A stretch of 56,934 nucleotides of DNA from Rhodanobacter sp. Its GTDB lineage: Bacteria; Pseudomonadota; Gammaproteobacteria; Xanthomonadales; Rhodanobacteraceae. The first letter of the stretch is position 1. Each line of letters starts with the position of its first letter. This document shows positions 33,179 through 48,918 of the stretch, in pieces. The notes beneath the pieces were generated by a model, which saw only the letters and a list, made by a program, of their open reading frames with translations, had not been told where the DNA came from and did not search any database. Both the position numbers and the translations under genes were made by a program. The stretch is from assembly GCA_035655635.1 (NCBI GenBank), contig DASRUB010000091.1, positions 1 to 56,934 on the forward strand, in the 5' to 3' direction.

Positions 33179-34480
33179 CTACGAGAACGGATGTTCGAGC
33201 GAAGGACTCTGCGGCGTGAACAGGCTCGCGCCGTTTTCAGTGATGTACATGTCGTCTTCCAGGCGCACGCCGAACTCGCCGGGAATGTAAATGCCCGGCT
33301 CGTCGCTGAAGGTCATGTTCCTTTCCAACTTGCGCTTGTTGCCGCGCACCAGGTAATACCACTCGTGGCCATTCATGCCGATGCCATGGCCGAGGCGATG
33401 GCCAAAATACTTGTAGTCCGGGCCATAACCATTGTCGACGATGACCTTGCGTGCAGCCGCGTCTATCGATTCCATGGCTGCCCCGGGATGCGCAGCCTTC
33501 AGGGCTGCCGATTGCGCCTTGAGCACGATGTCGAAGACCTTTTTCATCTTGTCACTGGGCTTGCCCAGGACGAAGGTGCGGCTGATGTCGCTGTGGTAGC
33601 CCTCCACCATGGCGTCGCCGTCGATCAACAGCGGCGTGCCTTCGGCGAGACGCTGAGGCACGATCGAACCATGCGGCAACGCCGTGTATTTGCCAACGTT
33701 GATGCTTGCGCCACCGGGCACGCCCAGACGTTCATAGGCTGCGGCCAGCCAATCGCGCACGGTGTCTTGCGTGATGCCCGGCTGCAGACCCAGATAGATG
33801 GCGTGATATGCCGCCAGCGTCGCATCGTTGGCAACCTGCATCAGTGCCAGTTCGGCGGGGCTCTTGACTGAGCGGCAGCCGCCGGTGACCGGTATCGCTG
33901 GGACCAGTTTCGCATGCGGCAATGCCTCGGCAATGCGCGACGCGCGGAAATATGGCACTTGCTCTTCAATACCAAGAGTCCCGGTCGAAGCATGCAGGTC
34001 GGACATCACCTGCGCCAGCCGTTGGTAGGGATCTTCGTGTTCTTGCCAGATCCGGACATCATGGCCGAATTTGATCTGCTCCAGCGCTCTGCTCTGTTCA
34101 AAGGCAGGGGTGATGTAGATCGGATCTCCCGACTTGGGCAAGACAAATCCCATCAGGCGTTCGCTGGTGAACCAGTGCATGCCGGTGAAATATTCCATCG
34201 AACTGCCACCGTCCATGTACACGGCGTTGATCTTGTTGTCCGCCATGAGCCGCTGCGCCCTGGCCAGGCGCGCCTTGCGTTCGGCGTCGGTGATCGGCAC
34301 GATCTTCGAAGTCACCGACTTCAGCGCCAAAATGGACGGCGGCAGCTTGACGGCTCCGGCGGCAGGCTCGGCTGCCAAAACCTTGCCGCCGAGCATGACC
34401 GCCGGCAGCACCGCCATGCCCAGTGCAGATGTCTTCAGAAAATTACGGCGATTTGAGTGCATCGAGTCGTTCATTTCCAC
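33179..34480 (-). CDS. M24 Xaa-Pro dipeptidase-like peptidase with Tat signal
   Basis: SNRRNFLK twin-arginine motif; IDG..YHSDISRT, HRLGHGIGMNGHE, SDEPGIY, GVRLEDD. Confidence 0.92.
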   Translation of the reverse strand: MEMNDSMHSNRRNFLKTSALGMAVLPAVMLGGKVLAAEPAAGAVKLPPSILALKSVTSKIVPITDAERKARLARAQRLMADNKINAVYMDGGSSMEYFTGMHWFTSERLMGFVLPKSGDPIYITPAFEQSRALEQIKFGHDVRIWQEHEDPYQRLAQVMSDLHASTGTLGIEEQVPYFRASRIAEALPHAKLVPAIPVTGGCRSVKSPAELALMQVANDATLAAYHAIYLGLQPGITQDTVRDWLAAAYERLGVPGGASINVGKYTALPHGSIVPQRLAEGTPLLIDGDAMVEGYHSDISRTFVLGKPSDKMKKVFDIVLKAQSAALKAAHPGAAMESIDAAARKVIVDNGYGPDYKYFGHRLGHGIGMNGHEWYYLVRGNKRKLERNMTFSDEPGIYIPGEFGVRLEDDMYITENGASLFTPQSPSLEHPFS

Positions 34481-34563
34481 GGGTGTTTCCTCATGTTAGG
34501 GGGCGTGCCGCCGCTGCGATAAAGCACTGGATCCGGAGAAGAACTTCAGTCAAGGCATCCTGT

Positions 34564-35023
34564 ATAGATCTGCGAAAGCCCGTTTCAGCAGTTGCACGGA
34601 AATGCAATGCCGAAGCGGGCTTGGTCAACCATATCTCACTTTTCGCGTCAGGTTCCACGCGCTCGCGCGGGCGGTGGAAACTCTTGCTGCAAGACCGCTC
34701 TCACGCCTCGGGGACGACGCATACCTCGCCTGACCCATCGAGGCATTTGGGACTGCAATCCCGGGATGGTCCTGCACAGCTGCATCTCCGAAGGAATCGC
34801 GTTCAGTCTCTTCGACGAGGCAAGCTTGCGGGCATGTGCGTTGCCGACAGCGCGTCTGCCTTGCAGACGCCCTTTGGGAAGACTGCGCGTGGAAGAGCTT
34901 GCCTCGGCGACGCGTTCCCGCGGCCATCGCCATCGACAAGTCACCATGGTCCGGATCGACCGCGACGACCTGCTGTGCGGAGCCGTTGTCGAGACCCTGA
35001 CGAAGAGGCGCGGTTTTCGCTGA
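34564..35023 (+). pseudogene. Probable LysR-type regulator remnant
   Basis: Fragments IDLRK..SAVAR, LGQPYLT and later CISEGIAFSL..GRLRVEEL..RQVTMV in different frames; divergent from the Tat peptidase. Heavily decayed. Confidence 0.4.
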
Positions 35024-35094
35024 GCATCGGCTTTCGATGATGCCCCTCGGCTGATGGATGCCACGGCGTCGGGGCTGCTGCAAGAGAACTCGGT

Positions 35095-36564
35095 ATGATG
35101 AACGGCGCACCCATCCCGGATTCGAGCATGCAGGCCACCACCTCCTCATTCCGCGACGCCCGGCTTGCCGAGGCGAGGAAGCTGTTCCAGGGCAATGAGC
35201 CGGCGCAGGCTGAGGCGGTGCTTTGCACACTGCACGCGTTGGAACCGGACCGGGAAGACGTGGGCATTCTTCTTGCCGAGGTGCAGCGCAGCCAGGGACG
35301 CTTCAGCGCGGCGGCCGGAACGTTGTTCACTCTGTGTCGGGCGAGCGGCTTCGAGCAGGGCATGAGTTTGCGCTGCGTGGAATTTCTCCGACAATGCGAT
35401 CGGCACGCCGCCGCAGAGCATATTTGCGAAGGAGCGCTGGTGCGCGGCGCGGTTTCGCCCGACTTGCTGATGCTGGCGGGTAACGTCGCGCGGGAAGTGG
35501 GCGATTTCGAAACTGCACGCACTCGGTACCTGATGGCGCTGGACTCCGGCATCGATTTGGGCCGGCACCATGTGCTGGGTGCGTTGGCCAATACCCGGCG
35601 CTATGGCGATGTTGCGGATACCGAGATCGCATGGTTCGCGCGGCACTTCGCGGATGCGCGTTTCAACCCGCGTTCACGCGCATCCGCAGGCTTCGCCCTG
35701 GCCAAGGCGCAAAATGATCTTGCCGATTACGCGGCCGCGGCAGCGACGCTGCGCTCGGCCAACGCGATGGTCCGTGCGACCGGGCAATGGGATGGCGCAG
35801 CTTGGCAGCGGTTCGTCGCCGCGCGAACACGCGACGAGGTGGCGGTTGCAAACACGGCGTACAACGGCGACTTCGTGCCCGTCTTCATCGTCGGGTTGCC
35901 GCGTAGCGGCACCACGCTGACCGCGACGTTGCTGGCACGCGCGACCGGTGCCCGCGATCGGGGCGAGATGCGCACGTTGCGTTTCATCGCGGATCAGCTG
36001 ATCGCCGGCGGGCATCTGGCCAGCAGTGCCGCCGTGGCGGAAGCGGCCAACCTGTACCGCACGCTGGCGGTCCAGGATGACGCGCCAGCCACGTGGTTCC
36101 TCGATCAGGACCCGCTGAATTTCCGCTACCTGCATATCGTCGCCGCGATGTTCCCAAATGCCCGGGTGATCCACCTGCGTCGGGGCCGCTCCGATACCGT
36201 CCTGTCACTGTGGAGCCAGGACTTCGCGCATCCCGATCTTGGCTTCGCCTATGACTTCGATGACATGCAGATAAGCATGTCCGGACACGATGCATTGCTG
36301 CGGTGCTGGAAGCAGAAGTTGCAGTTGCCGATCCTCGAACTCGATTACGAAACGCTGGTCGACAATCCTGACGCAACCCTGGCCAGGTTGTGCGACTTTA
36401 TCGGGACGAGGCCTGCGGTTGCGGCGTCTGCAAATGACGCGGCGCCCGTCATGTCCGCCAGCGTCTGGCAGGCGCGTCAGCCCGTCTACAGGACATCGGT
36501 CGGGCGCTGGCGGTCCTACGCGCCGTTTGTTCCCGAACTCGCGCGGTTTGCTCAATCCGCTTGA
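35095..36564 (+). CDS. TPR-repeat-containing sulfotransferase
   Basis: N-terminal Ala/Leu-rich TPR-like helices; 5'-PSB PVFIVGLPRSGTTL; FPNARVIHLRR..DTVLS; SASVWQARQPVY..SVGRWR. Confidence 0.88.
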   Translation: MMNGAPIPDSSMQATTSSFRDARLAEARKLFQGNEPAQAEAVLCTLHALEPDREDVGILLAEVQRSQGRFSAAAGTLFTLCRASGFEQGMSLRCVEFLRQCDRHAAAEHICEGALVRGAVSPDLLMLAGNVAREVGDFETARTRYLMALDSGIDLGRHHVLGALANTRRYGDVADTEIAWFARHFADARFNPRSRASAGFALAKAQNDLADYAAAAATLRSANAMVRATGQWDGAAWQRFVAARTRDEVAVANTAYNGDFVPVFIVGLPRSGTTLTATLLARATGARDRGEMRTLRFIADQLIAGGHLASSAAVAEAANLYRTLAVQDDAPATWFLDQDPLNFRYLHIVAAMFPNARVIHLRRGRSDTVLSLWSQDFAHPDLGFAYDFDDMQISMSGHDALLRCWKQKLQLPILELDYETLVDNPDATLARLCDFIGTRPAVAASANDAAPVMSASVWQARQPVYRTSVGRWRSYAPFVPELARFAQSA

Positions 36565-36600: not shown

Positions 36601-36892
36601 CCGGGCGCATGGCGCGCAGCCGTGACTGGGTACGATTGCGCGGGACAGCGCCAGTTTCGGAGTGGAGCAGATCATGCGGGCCAGGCATCTGCCACTGTAT
36701 GGCGAGACATTCGGTTTGCAGCCAGCCTCTTCCGCCGGTGGGCACTTGGCGCCTTTGCTCAGCGCCTCGCCGACGCCGGCCAAGGCGCAGGGTGCCATGC
36801 CCTGGTTAGGTACGATCTCGCTGGACAGCGGCCCACTGGATGTAGCGCGGACCATGCAGGCACGTGATCTGCCATTGTTTGATCAGGCCTTC
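36601..36892 (+). repeat. Degenerate tandem duplication with 180-bp period (60-aa repeat) in a probable pseudogene
   Basis: 36601-36712 aligns ungapped with 36781-36892: AHGAQP*LGTIARDSASFGVEQIMRARHLPLYGETF vs AQGAMPWLGTISLDSGPLDVARTMQARDLPLFDQAF. Confidence 0.75.
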
Positions 36893-36999
36893 CGAGCCGA
36901 TCGCGCGCATTGGCTGGCGGCATCGCCGTACCAGCAGATGCGGGCCCATATCGTGCCGTTACTTGAGTGTGCTCGGGCAGGCGGCTGAGGCCGTAGTTG

Positions 37000-38883
37000 T
37001 CACTCGGCTGGACTCACTTCGCTGAGGCGTCGGTAGATGGTGCTTCGACTCACCCCCAATTTACGTGCGGCGGCGGCAACGTTGCCGTCGCAGCTTGCAA
37101 CGGCCCCGTCGATCGCCTGCTGCTCGATGTCGTGAAGATTGCGGGCCAAATCTGCTGGTGCCAGTTCCGGCGCCGGGGCAGGTGCACCGGAGCTTCTCAG
37201 GTTGGCAGGCAAATCGGCGTGGGTGAGGGTGGCGCTCTTTTCCCCGAGCGCCATGAGGCTGCGCAGCAGGCCTACCAGCTGACGCATGTTTCCGGGCCAT
37301 GGCATGCCGGACAGCTCCTCGACCAGATCGGCATGCAGCCACATCGGAATCTGCTCGGCACCCAGCGCGTGCCAGAGCTGTCTGATCAAGGTGGCCGGGT
37401 CCTGATGATCTCGCAAGGCAGGAAGGCACAGCGTAGCCTGCGCGATCCGGTAGTAGAGGTCGGCACGGAATTCACCGCGGGCGACCGCATCGGCAAGGTC
37501 GTGGTGAGTGGCGGCGATCACGGTGATATCGATCGCATGCGAGCGGCTCCCGCCCAGCGGCGTGACTTCGCGTTCCTGCAGGACGCGCAGCAACCGACTT
37601 TGCATGCCGAGCGGCATGTCGCCCAACTCATCCAGAAACAGGGTGCCGCCATCCGCTTCGCGCAACAGCCCGGTGGAGCCCTCGCGTCGTGCGCCGGTGA
37701 ATGCGCCTGGCATGTAGCCGAATAATTCCGATTCGATCAGGTGTTCCGGCAATGCGGCGCAGTTGACGGCCACGAAGGGTGCGGCACCACGCTGGCTGCG
37801 CTGATGCAGTGCCCGTGCCACCACTTCCTTGCCGGTACCGGTCTCACCCTGCAGCAGCAGCGGGATGTCGGCATCCAGCAGGCGCACGCTGCGATCGATT
37901 TCAGATTCCAGACTGGCCGAGAAAACCGGCTCCGGCAGTCGGATCAAGCGCGATTTCGGGTTGCGCGAAACGCGTGAGGAAACGCTGTTGTGCCTGAGTG
38001 CATCGCGCGTGGCATGCAGCATCTCGCCGCTCTGACAGCGCATGCTGGTCAGGCTGCCCGGACGCGGCAGTGCCGAGGCGAACAATTCGTCGTAGCGGCG
38101 ACGGCCCAGCTCTTCCCAACCGACCCCGAGCAGGCGCAGCGCGTGGCGGTTGGCGGCGACCAGCCGGTGCGCCTCGAATACGAGCATGCCCTCGCGCGCC
38201 GTGCCCAGCAGGTCGGGATCGGGCTGGATGCGCACGATGTCGGCACCATCGAAATGATGTTCGAACAGGCGATGTTCGATCTGCTCGACCGCCAGTTGCA
38301 CCATGCCCAAGGCGTGCAGGTGGTGCAACGAGGCTTCGCCCGACAGATCGAGTACGCCGACGACTTCGCCCAGCGGATTGAAGATCGGCGAGGCCGAACA
38401 GCTGAGAATCCGATGCGGCGAGTAGTAGTGCTCGCCACCGCGCACTTCGACCGCGCAGCGCTCAATCAATGCCGTGCCGATGGCATTGGTGCCGGTTGCC
38501 GATTCGCTCCATGGCGAGCCGACTCGCAGCGAGACACGAGCCGCCTTGTCGAGAAAATCGGCATTGCCCACGGCATCGAGGATGAAGCCATCGGGGGCGC
38601 TCAGTATCACGATGCTTCCAGCCTGGTTGGCGCTGGCGTACAGGGTCTGCAATTCCGGTCGGCATAATCGGCGCAGCACTTCGTGCTGTTCCTGCAGCTC
38701 GTTCAACGCATGCTGTTCCGCCGGTTCAGCGTCCGGGCGCGCGTCTGCCAGCAGACCGTGCTGTCGGCAGCGTCGCCATGACGCGAGAATGTTTTCGGGA
38801 ACCAGACCGCGCGGTTCGGTACCGCTGTCGAAAAAGCTGCGGCGTGCGCTGCGAATTGAATCGGTCAAGGCAGGTAGGCGCAT
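37000..38883 (-). CDS. Sigma54-dependent enhancer-binding protein, GAF-AAA+-Fis HTH (AcoR-like)
   Basis: SWRRC, WSE...GTNAIGTAL GAF motifs; GETGTGKE, GAFTGA, LFLDELG, WPGNMRQL; C-terminal AARKLGVSRSTIYR. Confidence 0.93.
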   Translation of the reverse strand: MRLPALTDSIRSARRSFFDSGTEPRGLVPENILASWRRCRQHGLLADARPDAEPAEQHALNELQEQHEVLRRLCRPELQTLYASANQAGSIVILSAPDGFILDAVGNADFLDKAARVSLRVGSPWSESATGTNAIGTALIERCAVEVRGGEHYYSPHRILSCSASPIFNPLGEVVGVLDLSGEASLHHLHALGMVQLAVEQIEHRLFEHHFDGADIVRIQPDPDLLGTAREGMLVFEAHRLVAANRHALRLLGVGWEELGRRRYDELFASALPRPGSLTSMRCQSGEMLHATRDALRHNSVSSRVSRNPKSRLIRLPEPVFSASLESEIDRSVRLLDADIPLLLQGETGTGKEVVARALHQRSQRGAAPFVAVNCAALPEHLIESELFGYMPGAFTGARREGSTGLLREADGGTLFLDELGDMPLGMQSRLLRVLQEREVTPLGGSRSHAIDITVIAATHHDLADAVARGEFRADLYYRIAQATLCLPALRDHQDPATLIRQLWHALGAEQIPMWLHADLVEELSGMPWPGNMRQLVGLLRSLMALGEKSATLTHADLPANLRSSGAPAPAPELAPADLARNLHDIEQQAIDGAVASCDGNVAAAARKLGVSRSTIYRRLSEVSPAE

Positions 38884-38896
38884 GGGATGCCTCGGG

Positions 38897-38944
38897 TGTC
38901 GCATTTTGCGACAGCTTCGCAACAGGGTGTCTCGATACAAAACA
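38897..38944. promoter_or_regulatory. Upstream activator sites for the AcoR-like regulator
   Basis: Perfect inverted repeat TGTCGCA-TTT-TGCGACA (38897-38913) and degenerate copy TGTCTCG-ATA-CAAAACA (38928-38944), 130-180 bp upstream of the -24/-12 promoter. Confidence 0.65.
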
Positions 38945-39073
38945 CAACGAAGGGCGAAATGCAACGGAGTCGCCCGACCGTCGTTGGTGCGGCGCCGCAA
39001 TAGAACGCGAATGTCCTTTTAGTGCGAGGTTGGGCGTCCTGACACGGTGCAGCAATTCTACCAAGGCAACGGT

Positions 39074-39090
39074 CTGGCACGACATCTGCT
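39074..39090 (+). promoter_or_regulatory. Sigma54 (-24/-12) promoter of the aldB operon
   Basis: CTGGCACGACATCTGCT: GG-N10-GC spacing, 40 bp before the ATG, beside a sigma54 activator. Confidence 0.85.
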
Positions 39091-39130
39091 GTGTAGTCAT
39101 TACCTTCCATCAGACGCGGAGCAGACAGCC

Positions 39131-40651
<1,521 letters not shown>

Positions 40652-40757
40652 GCTTGCGAGCGGGCGGTCAGCCGTTCGCCCGCCTCGCCACCACCTCTGC
40701 AGATGATCGCCGCACCGTTGCGGTGAGGATCTTCTGTTGCCCATGCAAGGTATCCCG

Positions 40758-41258
40758 ATGAATCCAGCACGCCAGCAGGTTGCGCCCGCCAGCACACGAT
40801 CCGGTCGTGGCGGCGACGACGCATCGTGTCGTCGTGTCGTGGTCGCGGCGCTCGGGCTTTGCCTCGGCATGTCGACGCAAGCCTGGGCCGGGGACCCACA
40901 GCCTGCGCAGGCTGTCAATCTGCAACCGGTGGATGTGGCGGTGGCACCAGGTTTCGGTGCATGGCTGCCGGAGCAGTGGACGCCAAACGCGAAGGGTTCC
41001 AACTACCTGTTGCACGGCACCTTCCGGCTCGCCGACAAGCTGGAGCCTGGCCTCAACGGTGGCATCAGCCGCAACCAGGGCGACCTGGCCAACACGTCGG
41101 ATTTCAAGGCCGACAGCAAGGTCATGACGGGTCCGTACTACGCGCTGATCAAGAGCGTGACGCTGAGCTTCGAGTTTAACCAGACCCGTTCGAAGGATTT
41201 TGCCGGCAACACCTCACGCACGAATGGCGCGTCCAGCGACGGCTTCCTCATCTTCTGA
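40758..41258 (+). pseudogene. Internally deleted outer-membrane beta-barrel/porin gene
   Basis: Signal peptide (..STQAWA) joined almost directly to a few alternating beta-strand-like segments and a terminal Phe; too short for a porin. Confidence 0.5.
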
Positions 41259-41287
41259 TTTGCCTGACCGAAACACGGGAGATTCAC

Positions 41288-42985
41288 ATGAAAAACCTGA
41301 TGACCTTGCGCAAGAGCGGCATGTTCTTGGCGATGCTGGCGTTTGCTGGTGGTGCGCTGGCCGCCGATTACCCGGCGGTGACCGACGCTCGCCTCAACCA
41401 CGCAGCCAACGACAATGGCTGGCTGATGTACCGGCGTGACTACGCCAGCGACGGCTATGCACCGTTCAAGCAGATCAACACCACCAACGTCACCGGCCTG
41501 AAGCAGGTCTGGGACTACAAGACCGGCAAGGACGAGGGGCATGAGGCGCCGGCGATCGTCAACGGCGATTTCATGTACATCACCACGCCGAAAGATGGCC
41601 TGCTCGCGTTCCAGGCCAGCACCGGCAAGCTGTTGTGGCAGTACCAGCATGATCTGTCCCAGGTGGGCCTGAAGACCATCTGCTGCGATGTCGTCAATCG
41701 TGGCGTCGCGCTGTACGGTGACAATGTCTACATGGCCACGCTGGACAACTATGTGGTGGCGCTGAACGCGGTTACCGGCAAGGTGGTCTGGAAGAAGCAG
41801 CTGATTGCGGCCGACATCGGTTACGCGATGACGCTGGCGCCGCTGATCGTCAAGGGCAAGGTGATTGTCGGCGAGTCCGGCGGCGAGTACGGTGCGCGCG
41901 GGTTCATCGAGGCACTAGATGCCGACACCGGCAAGGAGGCATGGAAGACCTACTCTGTTCCCGCGCCCAACGAACCCGGTGGCAATACGTGGCCAAAGGG
42001 CGCGTACAAGACGGGCGGCGGCGGGGCATGGCTGACAGGCAGCTATGACGCGGCCACGGATACCTTGTTCTGGGGCGTCGGCAATCCCGGCCCGTGGCTG
42101 GCCACGCTGCGTCCGGGGGACAATCTCTACACCGACTCGGTCGTCGCCATGAATCCGGCCACCGGCAAGATCAAGTGGCACTTCCAGTACACCCCGCACG
42201 ACACCTGGGACTACGACGGCACCAACGAGACGGTACTCACCGATGTCACCTACCAGGGCAAGTCGCACAAGGCGCTGGTCAGCGCCAGCCGCAATGGCTG
42301 GTTCTACGCGATCGACCGCACCAGCGGCAAGCTGATCTACATGAAGAAGTTTGCCACGGCCACCTCGGTCAACGGCGAGAAGGACGGCAAGGTCACCACC
42401 GACCCGGCCATGCGCCCGGCCCTCGGCAAGGAAGTGCTTACCTGTCCAAGCTTCCTGGGCGGCAAGAACTGGTGGCCGATCTCGGTCGATCCGCAAACGC
42501 ATCTGGCCTACGTGCCGACCATCCACACCTGCATGACGATCAAGGGCACCACGGTCAGCTACAAGGCCGGCCTGCCGTTCCTCGGCGAGAGCTTCAAGGT
42601 GGTTGCCGATCCCGCGTTCAAGGGTCAGTGGAGTGACGTGCAGGCGATTGACGTCAACACCGGCAAGCAGGTCTGGACACATCCGTCCGCCTTGCCTTGG
42701 AACGACGGCATGCTGAGCACGGCCGGTGGTCTGGTGTTCTCCGGCAGCGCGGATGGCTACCTGCATGCGTTCGACGCGAAGAGCGGCAAGGTCCTGTGGA
42801 AGAGCCCGCAGATGAGCTCGGGCATCATCGGCGTGCCGAGCACCTGGACGGTGAACGGCAAGCAGTACGTGTCGATCTTCGCCGGCTGGGGCGGGGCCAC
42901 GCCGATCTGGGGCGGCGAGATGGCGAAAGATCCAGCTGTGCTGAACATCCCCTTGGGCGGTCACCTGTACGTGTTCTCGCTGTAA
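41288..42985 (+). CDS. PQQ-dependent alcohol dehydrogenase (methanol/ethanol family), predicted lanthanide-binding
   Basis: Signal peptide; vicinal CCDVVNRG; GGEYGARG; GNPGPW; PHDTWDYDGTNE; GGKNW; Trp-docking A.D..TGK..W repeats. Confidence 0.93.
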   Translation: MKNLMTLRKSGMFLAMLAFAGGALAADYPAVTDARLNHAANDNGWLMYRRDYASDGYAPFKQINTTNVTGLKQVWDYKTGKDEGHEAPAIVNGDFMYITTPKDGLLAFQASTGKLLWQYQHDLSQVGLKTICCDVVNRGVALYGDNVYMATLDNYVVALNAVTGKVVWKKQLIAADIGYAMTLAPLIVKGKVIVGESGGEYGARGFIEALDADTGKEAWKTYSVPAPNEPGGNTWPKGAYKTGGGGAWLTGSYDAATDTLFWGVGNPGPWLATLRPGDNLYTDSVVAMNPATGKIKWHFQYTPHDTWDYDGTNETVLTDVTYQGKSHKALVSASRNGWFYAIDRTSGKLIYMKKFATATSVNGEKDGKVTTDPAMRPALGKEVLTCPSFLGGKNWWPISVDPQTHLAYVPTIHTCMTIKGTTVSYKAGLPFLGESFKVVADPAFKGQWSDVQAIDVNTGKQVWTHPSALPWNDGMLSTAGGLVFSGSADGYLHAFDAKSGKVLWKSPQMSSGIIGVPSTWTVNGKQYVSIFAGWGGATPIWGGEMAKDPAVLNIPLGGHLYVFSL

Positions 42986-42998
42986 GCGGAGGTGGATC

Positions 42999-44213
42999 AT
43001 GAACAAGCATCGTTTCCATGCCGGCCTTCACCTGTGCCTCATCGGAATAGCTGCCGTACTGATGTACGGCGGCGCCGCTGCGGCGGCCGAGTTGTCGGTT
43101 TGCATTGACCAGGCCAGCCCGACCGCCAACATGGACCGGCAACTGGCCCAGGCGGTGGCCACGCAGGAGGGCAATACGCTGAAGGTCCACGCGTTCAATA
43201 GCGACGACGGTGGCGACGACGGGTTCGCCCCGAAGGAGTTCAGCAGACTCGCCAGGCAAAGCTGTGACCTGGTGCTGGGCTTTCCGGTCGATGCCAGTGA
43301 GGGCGCCGTGCCGTCCGGACTCCAGGCCACCACGCCGTATGGCCACACCGGTTTCGTGCTGGTGACGGCCAACGGCAGCAAGGCGACCACTCTTGACAGC
43401 CTGCCCGGTAACAGCAAGGTCGCCGTCACCTATCTGACCACACCGAACCTGTATTTCGCACAGCATCCCACGTTGCAGGCAGACGTTCATCTGAATGACG
43501 GCGACGCACTGGAGGCATTGCGCATGGGTACTGATCAGGCTGCCATGCTGTGGCAGCCCAGCGTGGTGCGCCATCTGTCCGCGCAGCGCGAGGCAGCCAG
43601 GTTCAGCTACCACCAACTGCAGGAGCCACATGCGCAGTTCAACCTGGTGGCGTTGTACGTCCCCGGCCATGCCAGCGCGGCGGCCGCATTTGAGCGGGCG
43701 ATTGCCACACTTGCCGCATCGAGCGAACTGGTGCACCTGCTTTCGCCCTATGCCGAGGCGGGCGGCGCGCAGCTGTCGCCGCGCCGGCCTTCGGCATCGC
43801 TATGGTGGTCGCGGCGGGGAAGCCGGGCAGAGCGCCGCTGCGGGGATGCTTTCAAGCCGTCGGCGGACAGCCCGCCACCGGCGCTGTTCACCAAGGCGCA
43901 GGCCGACAGCGGCAAGCAGAAGTTCCTGGAAAACTGTGCCCAGTGTCATGGGCCCACGTTGGCCGGTCGCGCGGGGCCGGCGTTGAAGGGGCCGAACTTC
44001 GCCTCGGTCAAGGCGCAATTCCACGTCAGCGACATCTTCACCATCCTGTCGCAAAACATGCCAGCTACCGAGCCGGGCAGCCTGGCCCACCAGGACTATG
44101 TGGAAATCATGGCGTTCCTGCTGCAGCAAAATGGCTACCCGGACGGCAGATCGGCGCTGACATTCGAGGAGGCGAAAAAGTCGAAGGTCATGCTGATCTA
44201 CCGCGGCCAGTGA
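42999..44213 (+). CDS. MxaJ/XoxJ-like periplasmic binding domain fused to a class I c-type cytochrome
   Basis: Signal peptide, LSVCID, CDLVLG, TTPYGHTGFVLV and DQAAMLW (J-like); C-terminal CAQCHG and MP axial Met. Confidence 0.75.
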   Translation: MNKHRFHAGLHLCLIGIAAVLMYGGAAAAAELSVCIDQASPTANMDRQLAQAVATQEGNTLKVHAFNSDDGGDDGFAPKEFSRLARQSCDLVLGFPVDASEGAVPSGLQATTPYGHTGFVLVTANGSKATTLDSLPGNSKVAVTYLTTPNLYFAQHPTLQADVHLNDGDALEALRMGTDQAAMLWQPSVVRHLSAQREAARFSYHQLQEPHAQFNLVALYVPGHASAAAAFERAIATLAASSELVHLLSPYAEAGGAQLSPRRPSASLWWSRRGSRAERRCGDAFKPSADSPPPALFTKAQADSGKQKFLENCAQCHGPTLAGRAGPALKGPNFASVKAQFHVSDIFTILSQNMPATEPGSLAHQDYVEIMAFLLQQNGYPDGRSALTFEEAKKSKVMLIYRGQ

Positions 44214-44418
44214 AATGATGTCGTCACTTGAGCAGGCAAAGCGCGCGATGCGGTGGCGGCATGGCGCAAACCACGGGGGCTCGAAATGAAGCCGACAGTA
44301 TGGTCATCAAGGCGACGATGCAAATGCATTCCCGAAGTGGAAATTTTCGTGGTTGTGCTTGCCTGGGCGGGCGGCATTCCACCGCCGGTTAGGTACACGC
44401 TTCATGCAGGAGAGTTCC

Positions 44419-44802
44419 ATGTCACCATCCACCAGCGTCGAAAAAGTGATTGCCACAGCCAGCGCCGATGCCCTGATCGAACGGTTGCGCCAACGCCACG
44501 GCCCGTTATTGTTCCACCAGTCCGGTGGCTGTTGCGACGGCTCCTCCCCGATGTGCTTTGCGCAGGACGACTTCATCGTGGGCGACCGCGACGTCAAGCT
44601 GGGCGAGATTGCCGGCGCGCCGTTCTACATGAGCCCTTCGCAGTATGAATACTGGAAGCACACCCAGCTGATCATTGACGTAGTCGAAGGCCGCGGTGGC
44701 ATGTTCTCGCTGGAGAACGGCCAAGGCGTGCGTTTTCTTACCCGTTCGCGCCTGTTTCGTGACGACGAGATCGACGAGATGATTCGCGATGGGCGCTTCT
44801 GA
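44419..44802 (+). CDS. DUF779 family protein
   Basis: HGPLLFHQSGGCCDGSSPMC, QYEYWKHTQLIIDVVEGRGGMFSLE; family usually accompanies aldB. Confidence 0.9.
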   Translation: MSPSTSVEKVIATASADALIERLRQRHGPLLFHQSGGCCDGSSPMCFAQDDFIVGDRDVKLGEIAGAPFYMSPSQYEYWKHTQLIIDVVEGRGGMFSLENGQGVRFLTRSRLFRDDEIDEMIRDGRF

Positions 44803-44829: not shown

Positions 44830-46821
44830 TTACTGCAGGTGTCGGCTCATCCAGCCGACCCAGCGCCGATACACATCCGTGGTGCGCACGATGTCTTGCG
44901 GGAAGTGGGTATCCACCGGATAAGCGTAAAACTCCACCGGCACGCCAGCATCGCGCAGCGCGTGGTACCACTCATAGCTGTTCACCAGCGGCACGTTGGG
45001 ATCGCCCACGTCGCCCATGATCAGGGTCGGGGCGGTGACATTCCGGGCGGCAGCCATCGGAGACTGTTCGCGCCAGATGTCGTGATCCTTTGCCTGCCAC
45101 GGCGAACCGCCGAAGAAATAGCTGTCGCCGGTCTGGTAATACGAAACGGTGTAATCCATCACCCAGTCGGTCAGCGCGGCGCCGGTGACAGCGGCCTTCC
45201 ACGTCGACGGATAATGCCCGGAGAGCCAGGCAGTCATGTAGCCCCCGTACGACCAGCCGCTGACGCCGATCCGGCTGCTGTCGATCATGCCCAGTTTCTC
45301 CACCGCCGCGAGACCAGCCATTACGTCCTTGCCCGGACCTTCGCCGGTGTTGCGGTAAATGGCGTGCTGGTAGGCGTCGCCGAGATTGGTGCTGCCGCGG
45401 TAATTCGGCTGGAACACCACGAAGCCGGCCGCAGCGAGCAATTGCGGCAACGGCGAGAACTGCACCGTGGAGCCGGCCTCGGGTCCGCCATGGATGACCA
45501 GCACCAGCGGGTACTTCTGGCTCTTTTGATAGCCGACCGGGTAGGTCAGAACGCCGTCCTCGTGGAAGCCGTCCGGACCTTGCCAGTCGATCGATTCGGT
45601 GCGACCGAGCGCAAGCTTGTCGACGAACCCGTTGAGGTTGGTCAGGCGGCGTGGCTGGGTGCTCGTGGAGTTCATCACGTACAGCTCGCCAGGATGATTG
45701 GCCGTGCTGCCGACGAAGGCCAGCGCGCCGGTCTTCGCGACGCTGACCTCCGCGTCCGCTTCGACGTCGCCCAGCTCGAGCCTGCTGGCCTTGCCCGACA
45801 GCGGCCGGCGCCACAACACCGCATGGGTGCCGTCGCCACCGGCCAGCACCAGCGCCTTGCCGTCCGGCAGCCAGGCGTAGTTGTCGAAGTTGCGGGCCAG
45901 CGCCTGGGTCACGTCACGGCTGTGGCCGTCGATGGAAACGTAGACGGCGTTGCCATTGTTCTGATCGCCGCTGCGGGGGCGCGTGAAGGCGAGGGCGCTG
46001 CCGCTCGGCGCATAGCGTGGGTCCATGACGGTCTGCTCGGCGACCAGCGTGCGTGGCGCGCCGCCGGTGACGTCGACCACGTCGATCACCGAGTGAAATG
46101 ATGGTCCCCAGTACGGACCGGGAAAACGCACGAAGGCGATGTGTTGGCCATCGCGGCTCCATGCCGGCTCCGGCGCGCCGTCCTGCTGGTCGGTCTGCAG
46201 GCTGAAGCTGCCTTCGGTCAGCCGTTTGGCGGTTCCGCCGACGCTGGGTACCACCCAAAGATGCGATGGAGTCAGCGCGGCGCGGGCAAGAAAGTGGTTG
46301 TCGGTGACTTGGAACGCATCGTCATGTGCCTTGATAGCCTTGGCGTTGGCCGCCTCATCGGCGGTGATGAAGGCAAGCTGCTTGCCATCCGGGCTCCAAC
46401 TGAAAGAGTCCACGCCGCGCTTGGTTTCAGTAATGCGGACGGCGTCGCCGCCATCCATCGGCATGACATAAAGCTGGCCTTGCTTGGTCTTGTCGTCCTT
46501 GGCGATGAAAGCCAGCCGAACACCGTCCGGCGACCAGCGCGGCGAGCCAAGTTCCTCGCGCTTCCAGGTCAGCGATCGCAGTGCGCCGCTGGCGACATCC
46601 ACCAGGTCGATCTCCTGCTGGTGCTTGTCGGTCTTGAAATCCGGTGTGGAGACAACGACGACGATACGTTTGCCGTCCGGCGAGATCTGCGGTTCGCTCA
46701 GGCGCACGATTTTCTGCAGGTCGCCCAACTGGAACGCCGGAGTGGTGCTGACGGCAGTCGCGGGAAGCGGCAGGACAAGCAGGCAACAAGACGCGAACGC
46801 AACAAAGCCGAGGAACTTCAT
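44830..46821 (-). CDS. S9C acylaminoacyl/prolyl oligopeptidase-family serine peptidase, secreted
   Basis: WSPDG propeller repeats; IHGGP, PNYRGS, GWSYGG, GDPNVP, THF; signal peptide. Confidence 0.92.
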   Translation of the reverse strand: MKFLGFVAFASCCLLVLPLPATAVSTTPAFQLGDLQKIVRLSEPQISPDGKRIVVVVSTPDFKTDKHQQEIDLVDVASGALRSLTWKREELGSPRWSPDGVRLAFIAKDDKTKQGQLYVMPMDGGDAVRITETKRGVDSFSWSPDGKQLAFITADEAANAKAIKAHDDAFQVTDNHFLARAALTPSHLWVVPSVGGTAKRLTEGSFSLQTDQQDGAPEPAWSRDGQHIAFVRFPGPYWGPSFHSVIDVVDVTGGAPRTLVAEQTVMDPRYAPSGSALAFTRPRSGDQNNGNAVYVSIDGHSRDVTQALARNFDNYAWLPDGKALVLAGGDGTHAVLWRRPLSGKASRLELGDVEADAEVSVAKTGALAFVGSTANHPGELYVMNSTSTQPRRLTNLNGFVDKLALGRTESIDWQGPDGFHEDGVLTYPVGYQKSQKYPLVLVIHGGPEAGSTVQFSPLPQLLAAAGFVVFQPNYRGSTNLGDAYQHAIYRNTGEGPGKDVMAGLAAVEKLGMIDSSRIGVSGWSYGGYMTAWLSGHYPSTWKAAVTGAALTDWVMDYTVSYYQTGDSYFFGGSPWQAKDHDIWREQSPMAAARNVTAPTLIMGDVGDPNVPLVNSYEWYHALRDAGVPVEFYAYPVDTHFPQDIVRTTDVYRRWVGWMSRHLQ

Positions 46822-46983
46822 GGAAACCCCTTTGATGACCCATGGTGGAGGCAACGGCGCGTGAACCGGGCCGCCGACGGAACGAGACGCGGCTACTTTA
46901 CGCCGGTAGCCCGGGGAAGTGCGGTCACCCGCCGCGGTTGGCGTACGCTATGCCGTTCCAGGTGCGCCACCGGGGAGGTTGCC

Positions 46984-47187
46984 TTGAACGCTTCGACACT
47001 GTGGTGGGGCCTGCTGTTCGGCTCGATCGGGATGGGCTTTTTCATCTACGGCCGGAAGCAGCGCGCGATCGTCCCCCTGATCTGCGGAGTCGCCTTGATG
47101 GCGTTCCCTTATTTCGTGAGCGGCACGGCCTGGTTGCTCGTCGTCGGCGTGGTGCTGATGGCGGTACCGTATTTCATCCGGACGTAG
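46984..47187 (+). CDS. Small (67 aa) membrane protein
   Basis: TTG start after GGGGAGG; MNASTLWWGLLFGSIGMGFFIYGRKQ..LMAFPYF..; three hydrophobic segments. Not called separately in the ORF track. Confidence 0.75.
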   Translation: MNASTLWWGLLFGSIGMGFFIYGRKQRAIVPLICGVALMAFPYFVSGTAWLLVVGVVLMAVPYFIRT

Positions 47188-47288
47188 GAGTCCGCCAGAT
47201 TCGTGGTCGAGGCGTATCTCTCCAGCACGGCAACTACGTGTTGGAGCGGATCGGGCGTGCTTCGCCGAATCCGCACCCAGATCGAACT

Positions 47289-48728
47289 TCACAGCGCGGA
47301 CAGGAACGCCACCAGGTCTTGCTTTTGCCTCGCGCTCATGCCGATGTTGAAACGCGTGTCGTAGAAGTTCACTACGTCCGCAAGGGTGGCCGCCGAGCCG
47401 TTGTGGAAGTAGGGTGCGCGCGCCGCGAGCCCGCGCAAGATCGGACCCTTGAACTTGCCGATGTCGCTCCATTTTCCAGTGAGCATCGCCAGCCCGGGAT
47501 CGGTGGTCTGCACCATTGCGCCGGTGCTGTAGCGGGTCAGCGTGTAGAGCGGCATGTCCGGAGTGCGCCGGCTGGCGTCGGCAATACCGATGTTGATCGG
47601 CAGCGCGACCGAGTGATTGCCGATGTTAGGTGCGTCGTGGCAACTCGTGCAGCTGCCCTGGATGACCGGTGCGCCGGTGACATCGTTCAGCCCGGCCACG
47701 CCGCTGATGCTGATGGGCATGCTGTTGAAAAGCTGCTCGCCGCGCGCGATGGCGGCACGCGCATGGTCGCGCGGATCGAGGCTCAGGTTCGCATTCTGGT
47801 CATTCCAGTCGTCGAACAGGCGCATCGCTTTCGCATCGAACGGCTCTTCGGTGGGATCGCCACCGAGCACGTCGTTGATGCCCACCCAGAAGCGTTGCTG
47901 GGCAAGAATGCCGGCGCCGCCCATGCCACCGTCGCCATTGAGTCGTCCGGCGCGGTTGTCGACCAGTTGGGCCGTGAACAGATGCGATTCGAAGTCGACG
48001 ATCTGCTTGAGGACGGCATCGCTGGGGGCGGTGATGGCCTGCGCATGACCGAGAATCGCATCGCGGGCCTGCGAGGTCAGGCTGGCGTGGATGTCGGCGA
48101 TATCGATGCCAGCGTCCATCGGCGGTTTGAACGGTGCGAAGGTTTCGCGGCCGTCCCACATCATCGCGGTGTCCCAGATCAGATTGGTGGCCGGTAGCGG
48201 GCGACGGAACAGCGACAGCTCGCGCGCGCTGGCGTAGCCGTAGGGGTCGTCCACCGCGGTCAGCCTGAATTCGGCATGGGCCGGCACTGGCAGGCCGATG
48301 CGCAGCACGCCGCGATTGATCAGCATGGCGTAGGCGATGCGTCGCGCATAGACGCTGGAAACATCCGCCAGCGGCGATACCGCACCATCGACCAGGGCGA
48401 AGATCGGATCGGCGCCGTTGGTCTGGTTGAAGCGCTGGCGTATCTCCGCGGCGGAGATCGTCCAGCCCTCGGCCTGACGGTGGCAGGAATTGCACGAACG
48501 CCCGTTGCTGCCGAGGCTCTGGAAGAACGGATTGCCGCTGTCGATGCTGCCGCCCGGCGTGCTGGTTTGCAGCGAGCCGGAGGGATCGGCGGTGATCAGC
48601 GGATCGGCGCGTCGTGACTGTTCGCTGGCTGCCTGGGCCGGCATGGCGGCCCAGGCCATCAGCAGAACGATGGCCGGGACCAGCAGGCCTCGGCCGACGG
48701 TGGATCGGATAGTGCGATGAAGCTCCAT
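47289..48728 (-). CDS. Di-heme cytochrome c peroxidase/MauG superfamily protein, exported
   Basis: Two CxxCH (CNSCH, CTSCH); MWDGR; TTDPG..GKFKGPILRGLAARAPYFHNG; DLVAFLSAL. Confidence 0.85.
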   Translation of the reverse strand: MELHRTIRSTVGRGLLVPAIVLLMAWAAMPAQAASEQSRRADPLITADPSGSLQTSTPGGSIDSGNPFFQSLGSNGRSCNSCHRQAEGWTISAAEIRQRFNQTNGADPIFALVDGAVSPLADVSSVYARRIAYAMLINRGVLRIGLPVPAHAEFRLTAVDDPYGYASARELSLFRRPLPATNLIWDTAMMWDGRETFAPFKPPMDAGIDIADIHASLTSQARDAILGHAQAITAPSDAVLKQIVDFESHLFTAQLVDNRAGRLNGDGGMGGAGILAQQRFWVGINDVLGGDPTEEPFDAKAMRLFDDWNDQNANLSLDPRDHARAAIARGEQLFNSMPISISGVAGLNDVTGAPVIQGSCTSCHDAPNIGNHSVALPINIGIADASRRTPDMPLYTLTRYSTGAMVQTTDPGLAMLTGKWSDIGKFKGPILRGLAARAPYFHNGSAATLADVVNFYDTRFNIGMSARQKQDLVAFLSAL

Positions 48729-48918
48729 GGCGAGGTCTCCCCTTCGGATGGTCGTTGCGCGGCGTTCCCCTGCTTCGACCCATTGGCGGGCGTGGCATCA
48801 CGGAAAACACCGCCTGCCGGCAAAGTGCGACATGAGGGGAGCGTGGCGCCGCTCGGGCGACGGAGCAGGGGGCCGGGGTCCGCATGGTGCTCTGCCTGGC
48901 GAGGTATCGCTGGAGTCG

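Follow-up and report, generated by a model that had tools for sequence, protein, structure and literature searches.

An operon at positions 37000–44802 of a Rhodanobacter contig quite probably encodes a pathway in which a type 7 PQQ-dependent alcohol dehydrogenase, predicted to use light lanthanides, would likely act in the periplasm to oxidize short primary alcohols (ethanol, for instance), likely pass the electrons to a cytochrome c fused to a J-like domain and likely obtain its PQQ through the PqqU importer encoded on contig C21. The operon lies in the window, the whole stretch of 56,934 nucleotides that we analyzed. Type 7 is a named yet uncharacterized group, and the operon is conserved among relatives, many of which place the PQQ importer gene within the alcohol-oxidation operon itself. 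The operon context suggests what the enzyme oxidizes, what induces it, where its electrons go and how its cofactor is supplied, making the type 7 clade directly testable. Standard growth tests run without added PQQ and lanthanide would overlook its activity.

Organization of the operon

We confirmed six open reading frames in the order given by the first-pass annotation: an activator gene divergent from aldB, followed by a porin remnant and the genes for the dehydrogenase, a J-cytochrome fusion and a DUF779 protein. The gene content and order, the −24/−12 promoter and the metal ligands that it listed were all present, and the individual parts of the operon all belong to known kinds. The first gene of the forward-strand unit (39131–40651) codes for a 506-amino acid NAD-dependent acetaldehyde dehydrogenase of the AldB/ExaC type, which passes the ExaC equivalog model NF050026 (950 bits; cut-off, 900). 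The last (44419–44802, forward strand) codes for the 127-amino acid DUF779 protein (PF05610, 163 bits).

The porin remnant (40986–41258, forward strand) proved real when aligned to relatives, matching solely the last 90 residues of their protein of approximately 400 amino acids (58–60%). It sits inside a 166-codon open reading frame starting at 40758 that is likely a pseudogene, judging from this alignment. A full copy (74% identity) is encoded on C21, and the full gene is kept in 41 of 80 related loci. The porin-like gene has no match in Pfam or NCBIfam; its signal peptide, size and C-terminal phenylalanine suggest that the full-length product is a porin.

A short spacer (44214–44418, forward strand) separates the J-cytochrome and DUF779 genes at the place where many relatives carry pqqU (approximately 2.2 kb); it directly follows the cytochrome gene in 19 of the 80 related loci. 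Comparison with these loci detected no pqqU remnant in the spacer. The operon is best read, from comparative sequence evidence, as an eroded form of a longer arrangement in which the activator gene diverges from aldB, porin, dehydrogenase, J-cytochrome, pqqU and DUF779 genes. Contigs from sequencing runs span the deletion points (X1, possibly from the source sample, spans both; X2 spans the porin point; X3 covers 44272–44445), so an assembly artifact behind the porin remnant and the missing pqqU is unsupported. Other, differing gene losses are found in the loci of near relatives (L005, L071, L030 and L008).

The dehydrogenase is a type 7 enzyme with a lanthanide-type metal site

The dehydrogenase gene (41288–42985, forward strand) encodes a 565-amino acid protein that scores 591 bits against the PQQ methanol/ethanol dehydrogenase model TIGR03075 (cut-off, 480). 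Its predicted structure (pLDDT 84.8) has PedH as the top fold match (TM 0.90, rmsd 2.0), consistent with the eight-bladed propeller of the PQQ dehydrogenase family. The numbering of the PQQ dehydrogenase types, type 7 included, reportedly comes from the 2014 work of Keltjens.

Trees built with a single type 7 reference and without type 6b and type 5 references grouped the protein with EDT10345 (P0291) of Paraburkholderia graminis in one clade (FastTree support 100). Sheet S3 of the supplement to PMC8561711 lists EDT10345, of strain C4D1M, as the type 7 reference. The two proteins are 55% identical over 572 columns. A quick IQ-TREE tree recovered the same clade, again with support of 100 and with two Burkholderiaceae members; the second FastTree tree left out six long-branch rows. 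The type 7 clade is well supported and adjoins the uncharacterized type 6a. Within it, the window dehydrogenase belongs to a subclade of Rhodanobacteraceae, Acetobacteraceae, Nevskia and Beijerinckia sequences that is sister to the Burkholderia type 7 enzymes.

The phylogeny proposed in the first-pass annotation placed the dehydrogenase outside both XoxF and ExaF/PedH. XoxF5, MxaF-like sequences and the genome's own two XoxF-like proteins formed a separate clade (100), as did type 2-like plasmid sequences (100); the comparison with PedH was made on sequence (approximately 40% identity) and fold rather than in the tree. The description of a divergent clade holds only in that the group is uncharacterized, although grouping with EDT10345 shows it to be the already named type 7 and rules out a new clade. 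The same grouping led us to drop type 6b as an identity, in a tree without a 6b reference. We found 449 matching stretches for type 7 in a scan of GTDB and an orthologue in 25 of 251 Rhodanobacteraceae genomes. Cultivated carriers include Dyella lutea, Dyella ginsengisoli, Luteibacter jiangsuensis, Beijerinckia and Gluconacetobacter; of these, D. lutea Sa and D. ginsengisoli are carriers that lack pqqC.

The metal ligands listed in the first-pass annotation are correctly aligned. The GGEYG, GNPG and WDYDG motifs of the dehydrogenase align with GGEFG, GNPA and WDFDG of PedH, so that the lanthanide-type ligand set E200, N266, D308 and D310 matches that of PedH, including the second aspartate of the D-x-D motif. 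The protein also has R335 and the vicinal cysteines C132–C133. D-x-D is conserved in 120 of 120 homologues, and C132, C133, D308 and D310 are invariant across 69 aligned type 7 sequences, whereas sequences of the ExaA and MxaF types within that alignment set have serine or alanine at the D310 position. The extra aspartate has been described as a lanthanide motif (10.64898/2026.07.10.737718). From this motif and the neighboring genes, we predict that the type 7 dehydrogenase depends on lanthanides. Our full-text literature searches returned no assay of a type 7 enzyme and no description of the operon. Huang, in 2019, reportedly assayed further clades, which could bear on whether type 7 counts as untested.

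The predicted electron acceptor (42999–44213, forward strand) is a 404-amino acid protein, identified by profile matches, in which an N-terminal periplasmic-binding-protein domain is fused to a C-terminal monoheme cytochrome c domain (CAQCH). The N-terminal domain is weakly MoxJ/XoxJ-like. TIGR03871 matched in 22 of 24 homologues (best E-value 1.4e-8), all far below the cut-off. Together with TIGR03870, these weak matches indicate a periplasmic-binding fold whose nearest named family is MoxJ-like. The J-type domain matched XoxJ (6ONP) with an E-value of 0.005, which was not the best match, and searching the domain alone against the PDB gave no match. Proteins of this fusion family are encoded in 71 of the 80 related loci.

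PQQ is likely imported

The pathway had been described as self-contained, a claim that the search for cofactor genes did not support. Searching with four pqq models, and with reading frames taken from three pqq loci of congeners, did not reveal pqqB, pqqC or pqqD in the 441 contigs of the genome, and pqqE was represented by a sub-threshold radical-SAM match with nothing orthologous. Congeners served as the positive control for pqqC, and control genomes gave no match; the same model matched 3 of 36 congeners, including the closest relative by dehydrogenase sequence (93%), and 47 of 80 carrier genomes. The pqqC model matched in none of 47 near-complete relatives, and in several relatives the pqqC matches contain stops or are truncated. 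Because no PQQ synthesis genes were found in the genome, it likely imports PQQ rather than making it. PMC12124388 describes the scavenging of PQQ by non-producers as widespread.

The source of PQQ is instead likely an importer, PqqU, encoded on C21. The operon-linked receptor of the relatives matches PqqU (6V81/9C4O) with an E-value of 1e-159. Residues Q84, F99, Q121, K274, R304, R365 and R536 (E. coli numbering, hand-counted from the alignment) are kept in all 23 full-length locus copies and in the C21 copy, which includes the Y/F/W99, R304 and R365 signature taken from PMC12124388. Retention of K274, R304, R365 and F99 led us to reject a PqqU-like lanthanide receptor without PQQ residues, and K274 likewise a K274E metal co-import variant. 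All PqqU matches scored 400–740 bits, below the 1200-bit cut-off of NF041535; the copies from the relatives' operons and C21 scored 650–698 bits with this model, and among the controls E. coli alone passed.

Weighing against this reading, PqqU is common in the genus even where the enzyme is lacking: it is present in all eight congeners with a type 7 enzyme versus 16 of the 28 without it. The 80 carrier genomes divide into 15 with both pqqC and pqqU, 32 with pqqC only, 30 with pqqU only and 3 with neither (77 of 80 have at least one of the two), a split that largely tracks taxonomy. In addition to pqqU and the full porin gene, C21 encodes a XoxF-like D-x-D enzyme, a XoxJ-like protein and ABC genes of the PedA1A2BC type (TIGR03861/63/64/66). 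The suggested search for lanthanide uptake genes thus yielded a Ped/Lut-like set. A second receptor family found at type 7 loci is also present on C21.

Control by a sigma54-dependent activator

The activator gene (37000–38883, reverse strand) codes for a 627-amino acid enhancer-binding protein with the Pfam GAF, Sigma54_activat and HTH_8 domains, an AcoR/EatR-like layout; homologues align from its ATG at 38883. The −24/−12 motif TGGCAC-N5-CTGC (39075–39089, forward strand) lies 56 nt upstream of the aldB start. Taken alone the motif is weak evidence, with 2 matches in the window versus 0.62 expected and 8 of 100 shuffles reaching 2. Among 34 aldB-first loci, however, 14 have the strict pattern between −52 and −60 (shuffle rate 0.2%), and the GGC and the G of the −12 element are conserved in 20 of 20 aligned regions. 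The genome also contains rpoN.

Approximately 160 nt upstream of the −24 element is a palindrome, TGTCGC-N5-GCGACA (38897–38913), the sole perfect match in the genome. It is shared by 29 of the 33 loci that encode a full activator (≥40% identity); it occurs in none of the remaining 47 loci and in 3 of 200 shuffles. This distribution makes it a probable upstream site for the activator. The conserved promoter and palindrome bear out control by sigma54 and a GAF activator, as expected of an EatR/AcoR-like regulon. The activator likely senses the substrate, because its layout matches that of EatR, which senses acetaldehyde (PMC5821096). The proposed contrast between a GAF activator and the known lanthanide switches compares unlike things, because the activator is likely a substrate sensor and the genome showed no Ca-type partner enzyme to switch to. 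A two-component pair replaces the activator in some type 7 loci.

Discussion

We propose that alcohol would enter through a porin (the local gene is broken and the full copy is on C21) and that the apo-enzyme would load Ln3+ and PQQ imported by PqqU, whose signature residues are conserved. By analogy with ExaA-ExaB and PedH-PedF, the dehydrogenase would yield an aldehyde, with electrons reaching a terminal oxidase through the cytochrome domain. The cytoplasmic AldB/ExaC enzyme would then convert acetaldehyde to acetate, as its family membership indicates. As with EatR, the aldehyde or alcohol may activate the GAF protein to bind the palindrome and open the −24/−12 promoter, forming a positive loop.

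A substrate other than ethanol, be it an alcohol, diol or aldehyde (e.g., propanediol, butanediol or aromatic alcohols), with the same lanthanide site and with aldB and DUF779 as the mere host unit of a module that moved in, is in our judgment unlikely, if the least so of the rival readings. The identity of approximately 40% to PedH and ExaA and the separate, well-supported clade beside type 6a are consistent with it, as is the variable position or absence of aldB in many loci. Against it, aldB-like genes are present in 56 of 84 loci, aldB of the ExaC type recurs beside the enzyme in both gamma- and alphaproteobacteria, and the Burkholderia multivorans locus has acs. Ethanol need not be the substrate of the whole clade, because neither aldB nor an activator gene lies near the dehydrogenase gene in Gluconacetobacter and Acetobacter. 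The dehydrogenase could also run on Ca2+, or on either metal, as an ordinary quinoprotein despite its D-x-D motif: one D-x-D-type XoxF1 was reported with Ca only (PMC6028718), the available text of 10.64898/2026.07.10.737718 confirms lanthanide use outside XoxF for type 2b only, and the operon lacks a lanthanide transporter. We consider this decidedly improbable given the invariant D310 and universal D-x-D, the serine or alanine of the ExaA and MxaF types, and a genome with Ped/Lut-like ABC genes and two XoxF-like enzymes.

Scavenging would be the wrong reading here if the strain made its own PQQ with genes missed by the assembly, or if the locus were decaying and unused. The 441 contigs, the pqqC of 3 of 36 congeners (nearest dehydrogenase relative included) and the loss of the local porin and pqqU would agree with such a scenario. 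We regard it as very unlikely, however, in a genome that is 100% complete by markers and in which all pqq searches gave nothing orthologous. Matches to pqqC are also lacking in the near-complete relatives and interrupted or truncated in several others, and the dehydrogenase, cytochrome, aldB and promoter are intact, with full C21 copies of the lost genes. Lanthanide-dependent alcohol oxidation with imported PQQ is thus our preferred reading. More tentatively, and with considerable doubt, type 7 may be a fourth functional branch of lanthanide-dependent alcohol oxidation, with a Rhodanobacteraceae operon of two borrowed cofactors in which an aldehyde-sensing sigma54 activator co-induces the enzyme, chaperone-cytochrome fusion, porin and PQQ importer. 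Acid-soil and peat bacteria might then oxidize alcohol only with their neighbors' PQQ and soil lanthanide, the module might carry PQQ synthesis genes in some lineages (Burkholderiaceae) and pqqU instead in others, and the second receptor family might be a lanthanide importer.

Comparison with known systems

The window dehydrogenase shares the WDYDG motif with EDT10345, and Burkholderia type 7 members also have the dehydrogenase gene followed by the J-cytochrome gene, plus a GAF sigma54 activator. The B. multivorans locus, for example, contains acs, a porin gene, a related activator (40%) and pqqABCDE. The two Burkholderia loci examined carry PQQ synthesis genes, whereas those of Rhodanobacteraceae have aldB, DUF779 and pqqU. 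PedH/ExaF (type 2b) is the best match by sequence (412 bits) as well as fold and shares the vicinal disulfide and the lanthanide ligands; its linked partners likewise include a cytochrome (PedF c550), an aldehyde dehydrogenase of the ExaC type (PedI/ExaC) and a porin. Unlike PedH/ExaF, the window enzyme belongs to a separate clade, its cytochrome is fused to a J-like domain, its locus has a sigma54 activator rather than PedS2/R2, and its PQQ is probably not made by the host. No Ca-type partner was found in the genome, where all three PQQ dehydrogenases found have D-x-D.

EatR (PA4021)-PA4022 of Pseudomonas aeruginosa similarly combines a divergent enhancer-binding protein, a −24/−12 promoter and an ExaC-like aldehyde dehydrogenase in first place. 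The likeness is one of layout; the payload there is ethanolamine lyase and a transporter. The importer resembles PqqU of E. coli (YncD, PDB 9C4O) and P. aeruginosa (PA2289) in keeping seven of seven checked PQQ-contact residues. It differs in falling below the NCBIfam cut-off and, in relatives, in being encoded within the operon of a lanthanide-type alcohol-oxidizing enzyme, a setting outside those described in the available part of PMC12124388. By gene numbering, PA2289 adjoins gcd (PA2290), a precedent for the linkage of pqqU to a quinoprotein.

Operon structure and dehydrogenase motifs

All six genes claimed for the operon were found at 37000–44802 in the order proposed: activator, divergent aldB, porin remnant, dehydrogenase, J-cytochrome fusion and DUF779. 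The activator starts at the ATG at 38883, from which its homologues align, and a domain search assigned it GAF, sigma54 AAA+ and Fis-type HTH domains. AldB scored above the ExaC equivalog cut-off (950 versus 900 bits) and the dehydrogenase above that of TIGR03075 (591 versus 480 bits). The best solved relative of the dehydrogenase is PedH (412 bits), followed by ADH IIB and ExaA; PedH is also the top fold match (TM 0.90, rmsd 2.0) of its AlphaFold2 model (pLDDT 84.8). The lanthanide-type ligands described in the first-pass annotation were borne out, as the GGEYG, GNPG and WDYDG motifs align with GGEFG, GNPA and WDFDG of PedH. The Cys-Cys pair, Glu, Asn and D-x-D are kept in 120 of the 120 homologues listed, and MxaF-like and ExaA-like sequences in the tree have A or S at the second Asp position of D-x-D.

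Unrelated genes flank the operon (44830–51681 and 33179–36564) and encode an S9 peptidase, a MauG-like di-haem protein, a Ser/Thr kinase-TPR protein, a sulfotransferase and an M24 peptidase. A 108-aa ORF convergent with the activator (36662–36988) has no Pfam match; homologous sequence is present in two related loci, one of them frameshifted.

Downstream of aldB, a 166-codon ORF aligns with only the final 90 residues of a gene product ~400 aa long. The gene is intact in 41 of 80 related loci (best 80 of 449 matches), and the genome has a full copy (74%) on another contig, C21. Family-model searches gave the protein no name, so we infer the porin label. Close relatives lost the porin gene and pqqU (PQQ importer) by differing routes, and contigs from public runs span the junctions of the short operon form (the two best bridging runs are peat metagenomes, the first of which may be the source sample). 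Hence, the short form is real.

Phylogenetic placement

In a quick tree, the enzyme grouped with proteins from Rhodanobacteraceae, Lysobacteraceae, Nevskiaceae, Acetobacteraceae, Beijerinckia and Burkholderiaceae in one clade (support 100), separate from type 2-like and XoxF/MxaF sequences. The neighbouring group (96) contains two non-MxaF dehydrogenases of the Methylobacterium aquaticum 22A plasmid. Because this plasmid has three such genes, we infer that the two are Adh4 and Adh6, which are assigned to type 6a (PMC7356819, in part). Sister type 6a-like dehydrogenases (loci L097, L098, L120, L121 and L122) lack the Cys-Cys pair and have WDWDE or WDWAA motifs; three are annotated beside Rieske proteins.

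The first-pass annotation had placed the enzyme in a divergent ADH clade. Instead, P. graminis EDT10345 (our P0291), given as type 7 in supplement sheet S3 of PMC8561711, falls inside the same clade (FastTree support 100, six long-branch rows omitted) and is 55% identical to the enzyme. A 50%-identity library contained a single full-length representative more than 50% identical (57%); the next full-length entries reached 46% at most. The group is thus a subclade within the named type 7. A literature search, with most subscription papers beyond reach, returned no description of the operon or of a type 7 assay. Among non-XoxF families, a 2026 preprint reports lanthanide use as confirmed in type 2b only (10.64898/2026.07.10.737718).

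PQQ supply

The first-pass annotation required a source of PQQ. Model searches of the genome (3.9 Mb, 441 contigs, marker completeness 100%) found no pqqB, pqqC or pqqD and just a sub-threshold radical-SAM match for pqqE, and frames from three congener pqq loci recovered no orthologue, leaving no source by synthesis in the assembly. As positive controls, the pqqC model matched in 3 of 36 congeners and in 47 of 80 carrier genomes (best 80 of 449 matches). Internal stops or truncation of the pqqC matches in four related genomes (G013:C84:4055–4753, G354:C29, G380:C6 and G329:C4) hint at ongoing loss of PQQ synthesis.

The gap in synthesis points to import through PqqU as the probable supply. Relatives have a gene for a 720–750 aa TonB-dependent receptor between the cytochrome gene and DUF779, whose only strong PDB matches are YncD/PqqU (E 1e-159). 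All 23 full-length locus copies (23 of 23) retain the PqqU signature (Y/F/W99, R304, R365; PMC12124388, in part) as well as Q84, Q121, K274 and R536. Our genome encodes a PqqU with the same seven residues on C21. Among the best 80 of 449 matches, 26 have pqqU inside the fetched stretch and 19 have it immediately downstream of the cytochrome gene; several loci are cut off too early to judge. These 80 carrier genomes have both pqqC and pqqU (15), pqqC only (32), pqqU only (30) or neither (3), and pqqU is in the locus in 22 of the 33 without pqqC versus 4 of the 47 with it, a split that mostly tracks taxonomy, alphaproteobacteria being the PQQ makers. Congeners carry pqqU in 8/8 genomes with the enzyme versus 16/28 without it, one of the negatives being G015, an unpublished genome.

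In B. multivorans, the type 7 gene occurs with a J-type gene, HiPIP, acs, a porin gene, a 40% identical activator and pqqABCDE, and Burkholderia sp. YI23 has the order activator-pqqA-pqqD-ADH-cytochrome. Together with the pqqU-containing loci of relatives, this indicates that the type 7 module carries genes for either synthesis or import. There is a precedent for a pqqU gene linked to a quinoprotein: PA2289, by numbering, is beside gcd, PA2290 (10.64898/2026.04.27.721047, in part).

Other putatively lanthanide-related loci

C21 also carries a lanthanide/methylotrophy-like island (2495–25352) in this genome in which no pqq genes were found. It encodes a XoxF-like D-x-D dehydrogenase (best match 7O6Z), a XoxJ-ankyrin protein, a cytochrome c, frmA, gfa, the full porin, PqqU, a second GAF sigma54 activator and ABC proteins above the cut-offs of TIGR03861, 64 and 66 and slightly below that of TIGR03863 (408 versus 414). 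By description alone, the ABC genes correspond to PedA1A2BC, the lanthanide transporter of P. putida (PMC12997753, in part). A second TonB-dependent receptor (C21:18477–20843; L092:6478–8844) lacks the PqqU signature and has homologues at L011:3298–5595, L030:12785–15130 and L054:12755–15109. Of 80 type 7 loci (best 80 of 449), 3 contain close homologues (67–69%) and a further 10 contain distant ones (31–36%); at least 5 of 14 plasmid matches lie within ~5 kb of a PQQ dehydrogenase match. We consider this family a candidate lanthanide importer. A third D-x-D dehydrogenase (contig C356, 13316–15019 onward; WDYDA) has a long N-terminal extension, falls on the XoxF side of the tree and precedes a cytochrome c gene shortly before the contig end.

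Regulation

The predicted co-transcription of the operon would start at a sigma54 -24/-12 promoter, TGGCACGACATCTGC (39075–39089), whose position is conserved upstream of aldB. The pattern is non-significant by itself (2 matches versus 0.62 expected in the window). Comparison among loci upheld the promoter: the strict pattern occurs 52–60 nt upstream of aldB in 14 of 34 aldB-first loci versus 0.2% of shuffles, and GGC and the -12 G are kept in 20 of 20 aligned regions. The genome also has rpoN. The same alignment contains a palindrome, TGTCGC-N5-GCGACA (38897–38913), which is the sole perfect match in the genome and the predicted activator site. Among the best 80 of 449 matches, 29 of the 33 loci with a full activator (identity ≥40%) contain it, versus 0 of the 47 others; 3 of 200 shuffles produced it.

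The GAF activator proposed in place of a two-component lanthanide switch is present, although its likely role is substrate sensing. This reading rests on EatR, which senses acetaldehyde (review PMC5821096, in part) and shares the activator-aldB layout; the inducer would be of this kind. A homology search with a single query found no Ca-type enzyme in the genome, so a metal switch may be unneeded. A short regulator with GAF and Fis-HTH domains but no AAA+ neighbours the type 7 gene in L049 (313–1284) and 18 similar loci of the Acetobacteraceae type; this suggests a sigma54-independent derivative of the activator. In L050 (2927–6147) and nine similar loci of Gluconacetobacter, Acetobacter and Acidomonas, a cytochrome c gene and those encoding haem-copper oxidase subunits II and I are oriented divergently from the type 7 gene; most of these loci have a LuxR/HAMP-kinase two-component pair after the type 7 gene in place of the GAF activator. 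A dedicated cytochrome c oxidase branch is possible in these acetic acid bacteria.

Proposed pathway and comparison with known systems

The dehydrogenase would most likely use Ln3+ and imported PQQ to oxidize a short alcohol in the periplasm and most likely pass electrons to the fused J-cytochrome, AldB most likely yielding the acid product. Given the operon context, cultivated strains could be used to test a candidate lanthanide clade and PQQ cross-feeding. The individual parts are of known kinds, type 7 is a named and common group, and the predicted pathway resembles Exa/Ped.
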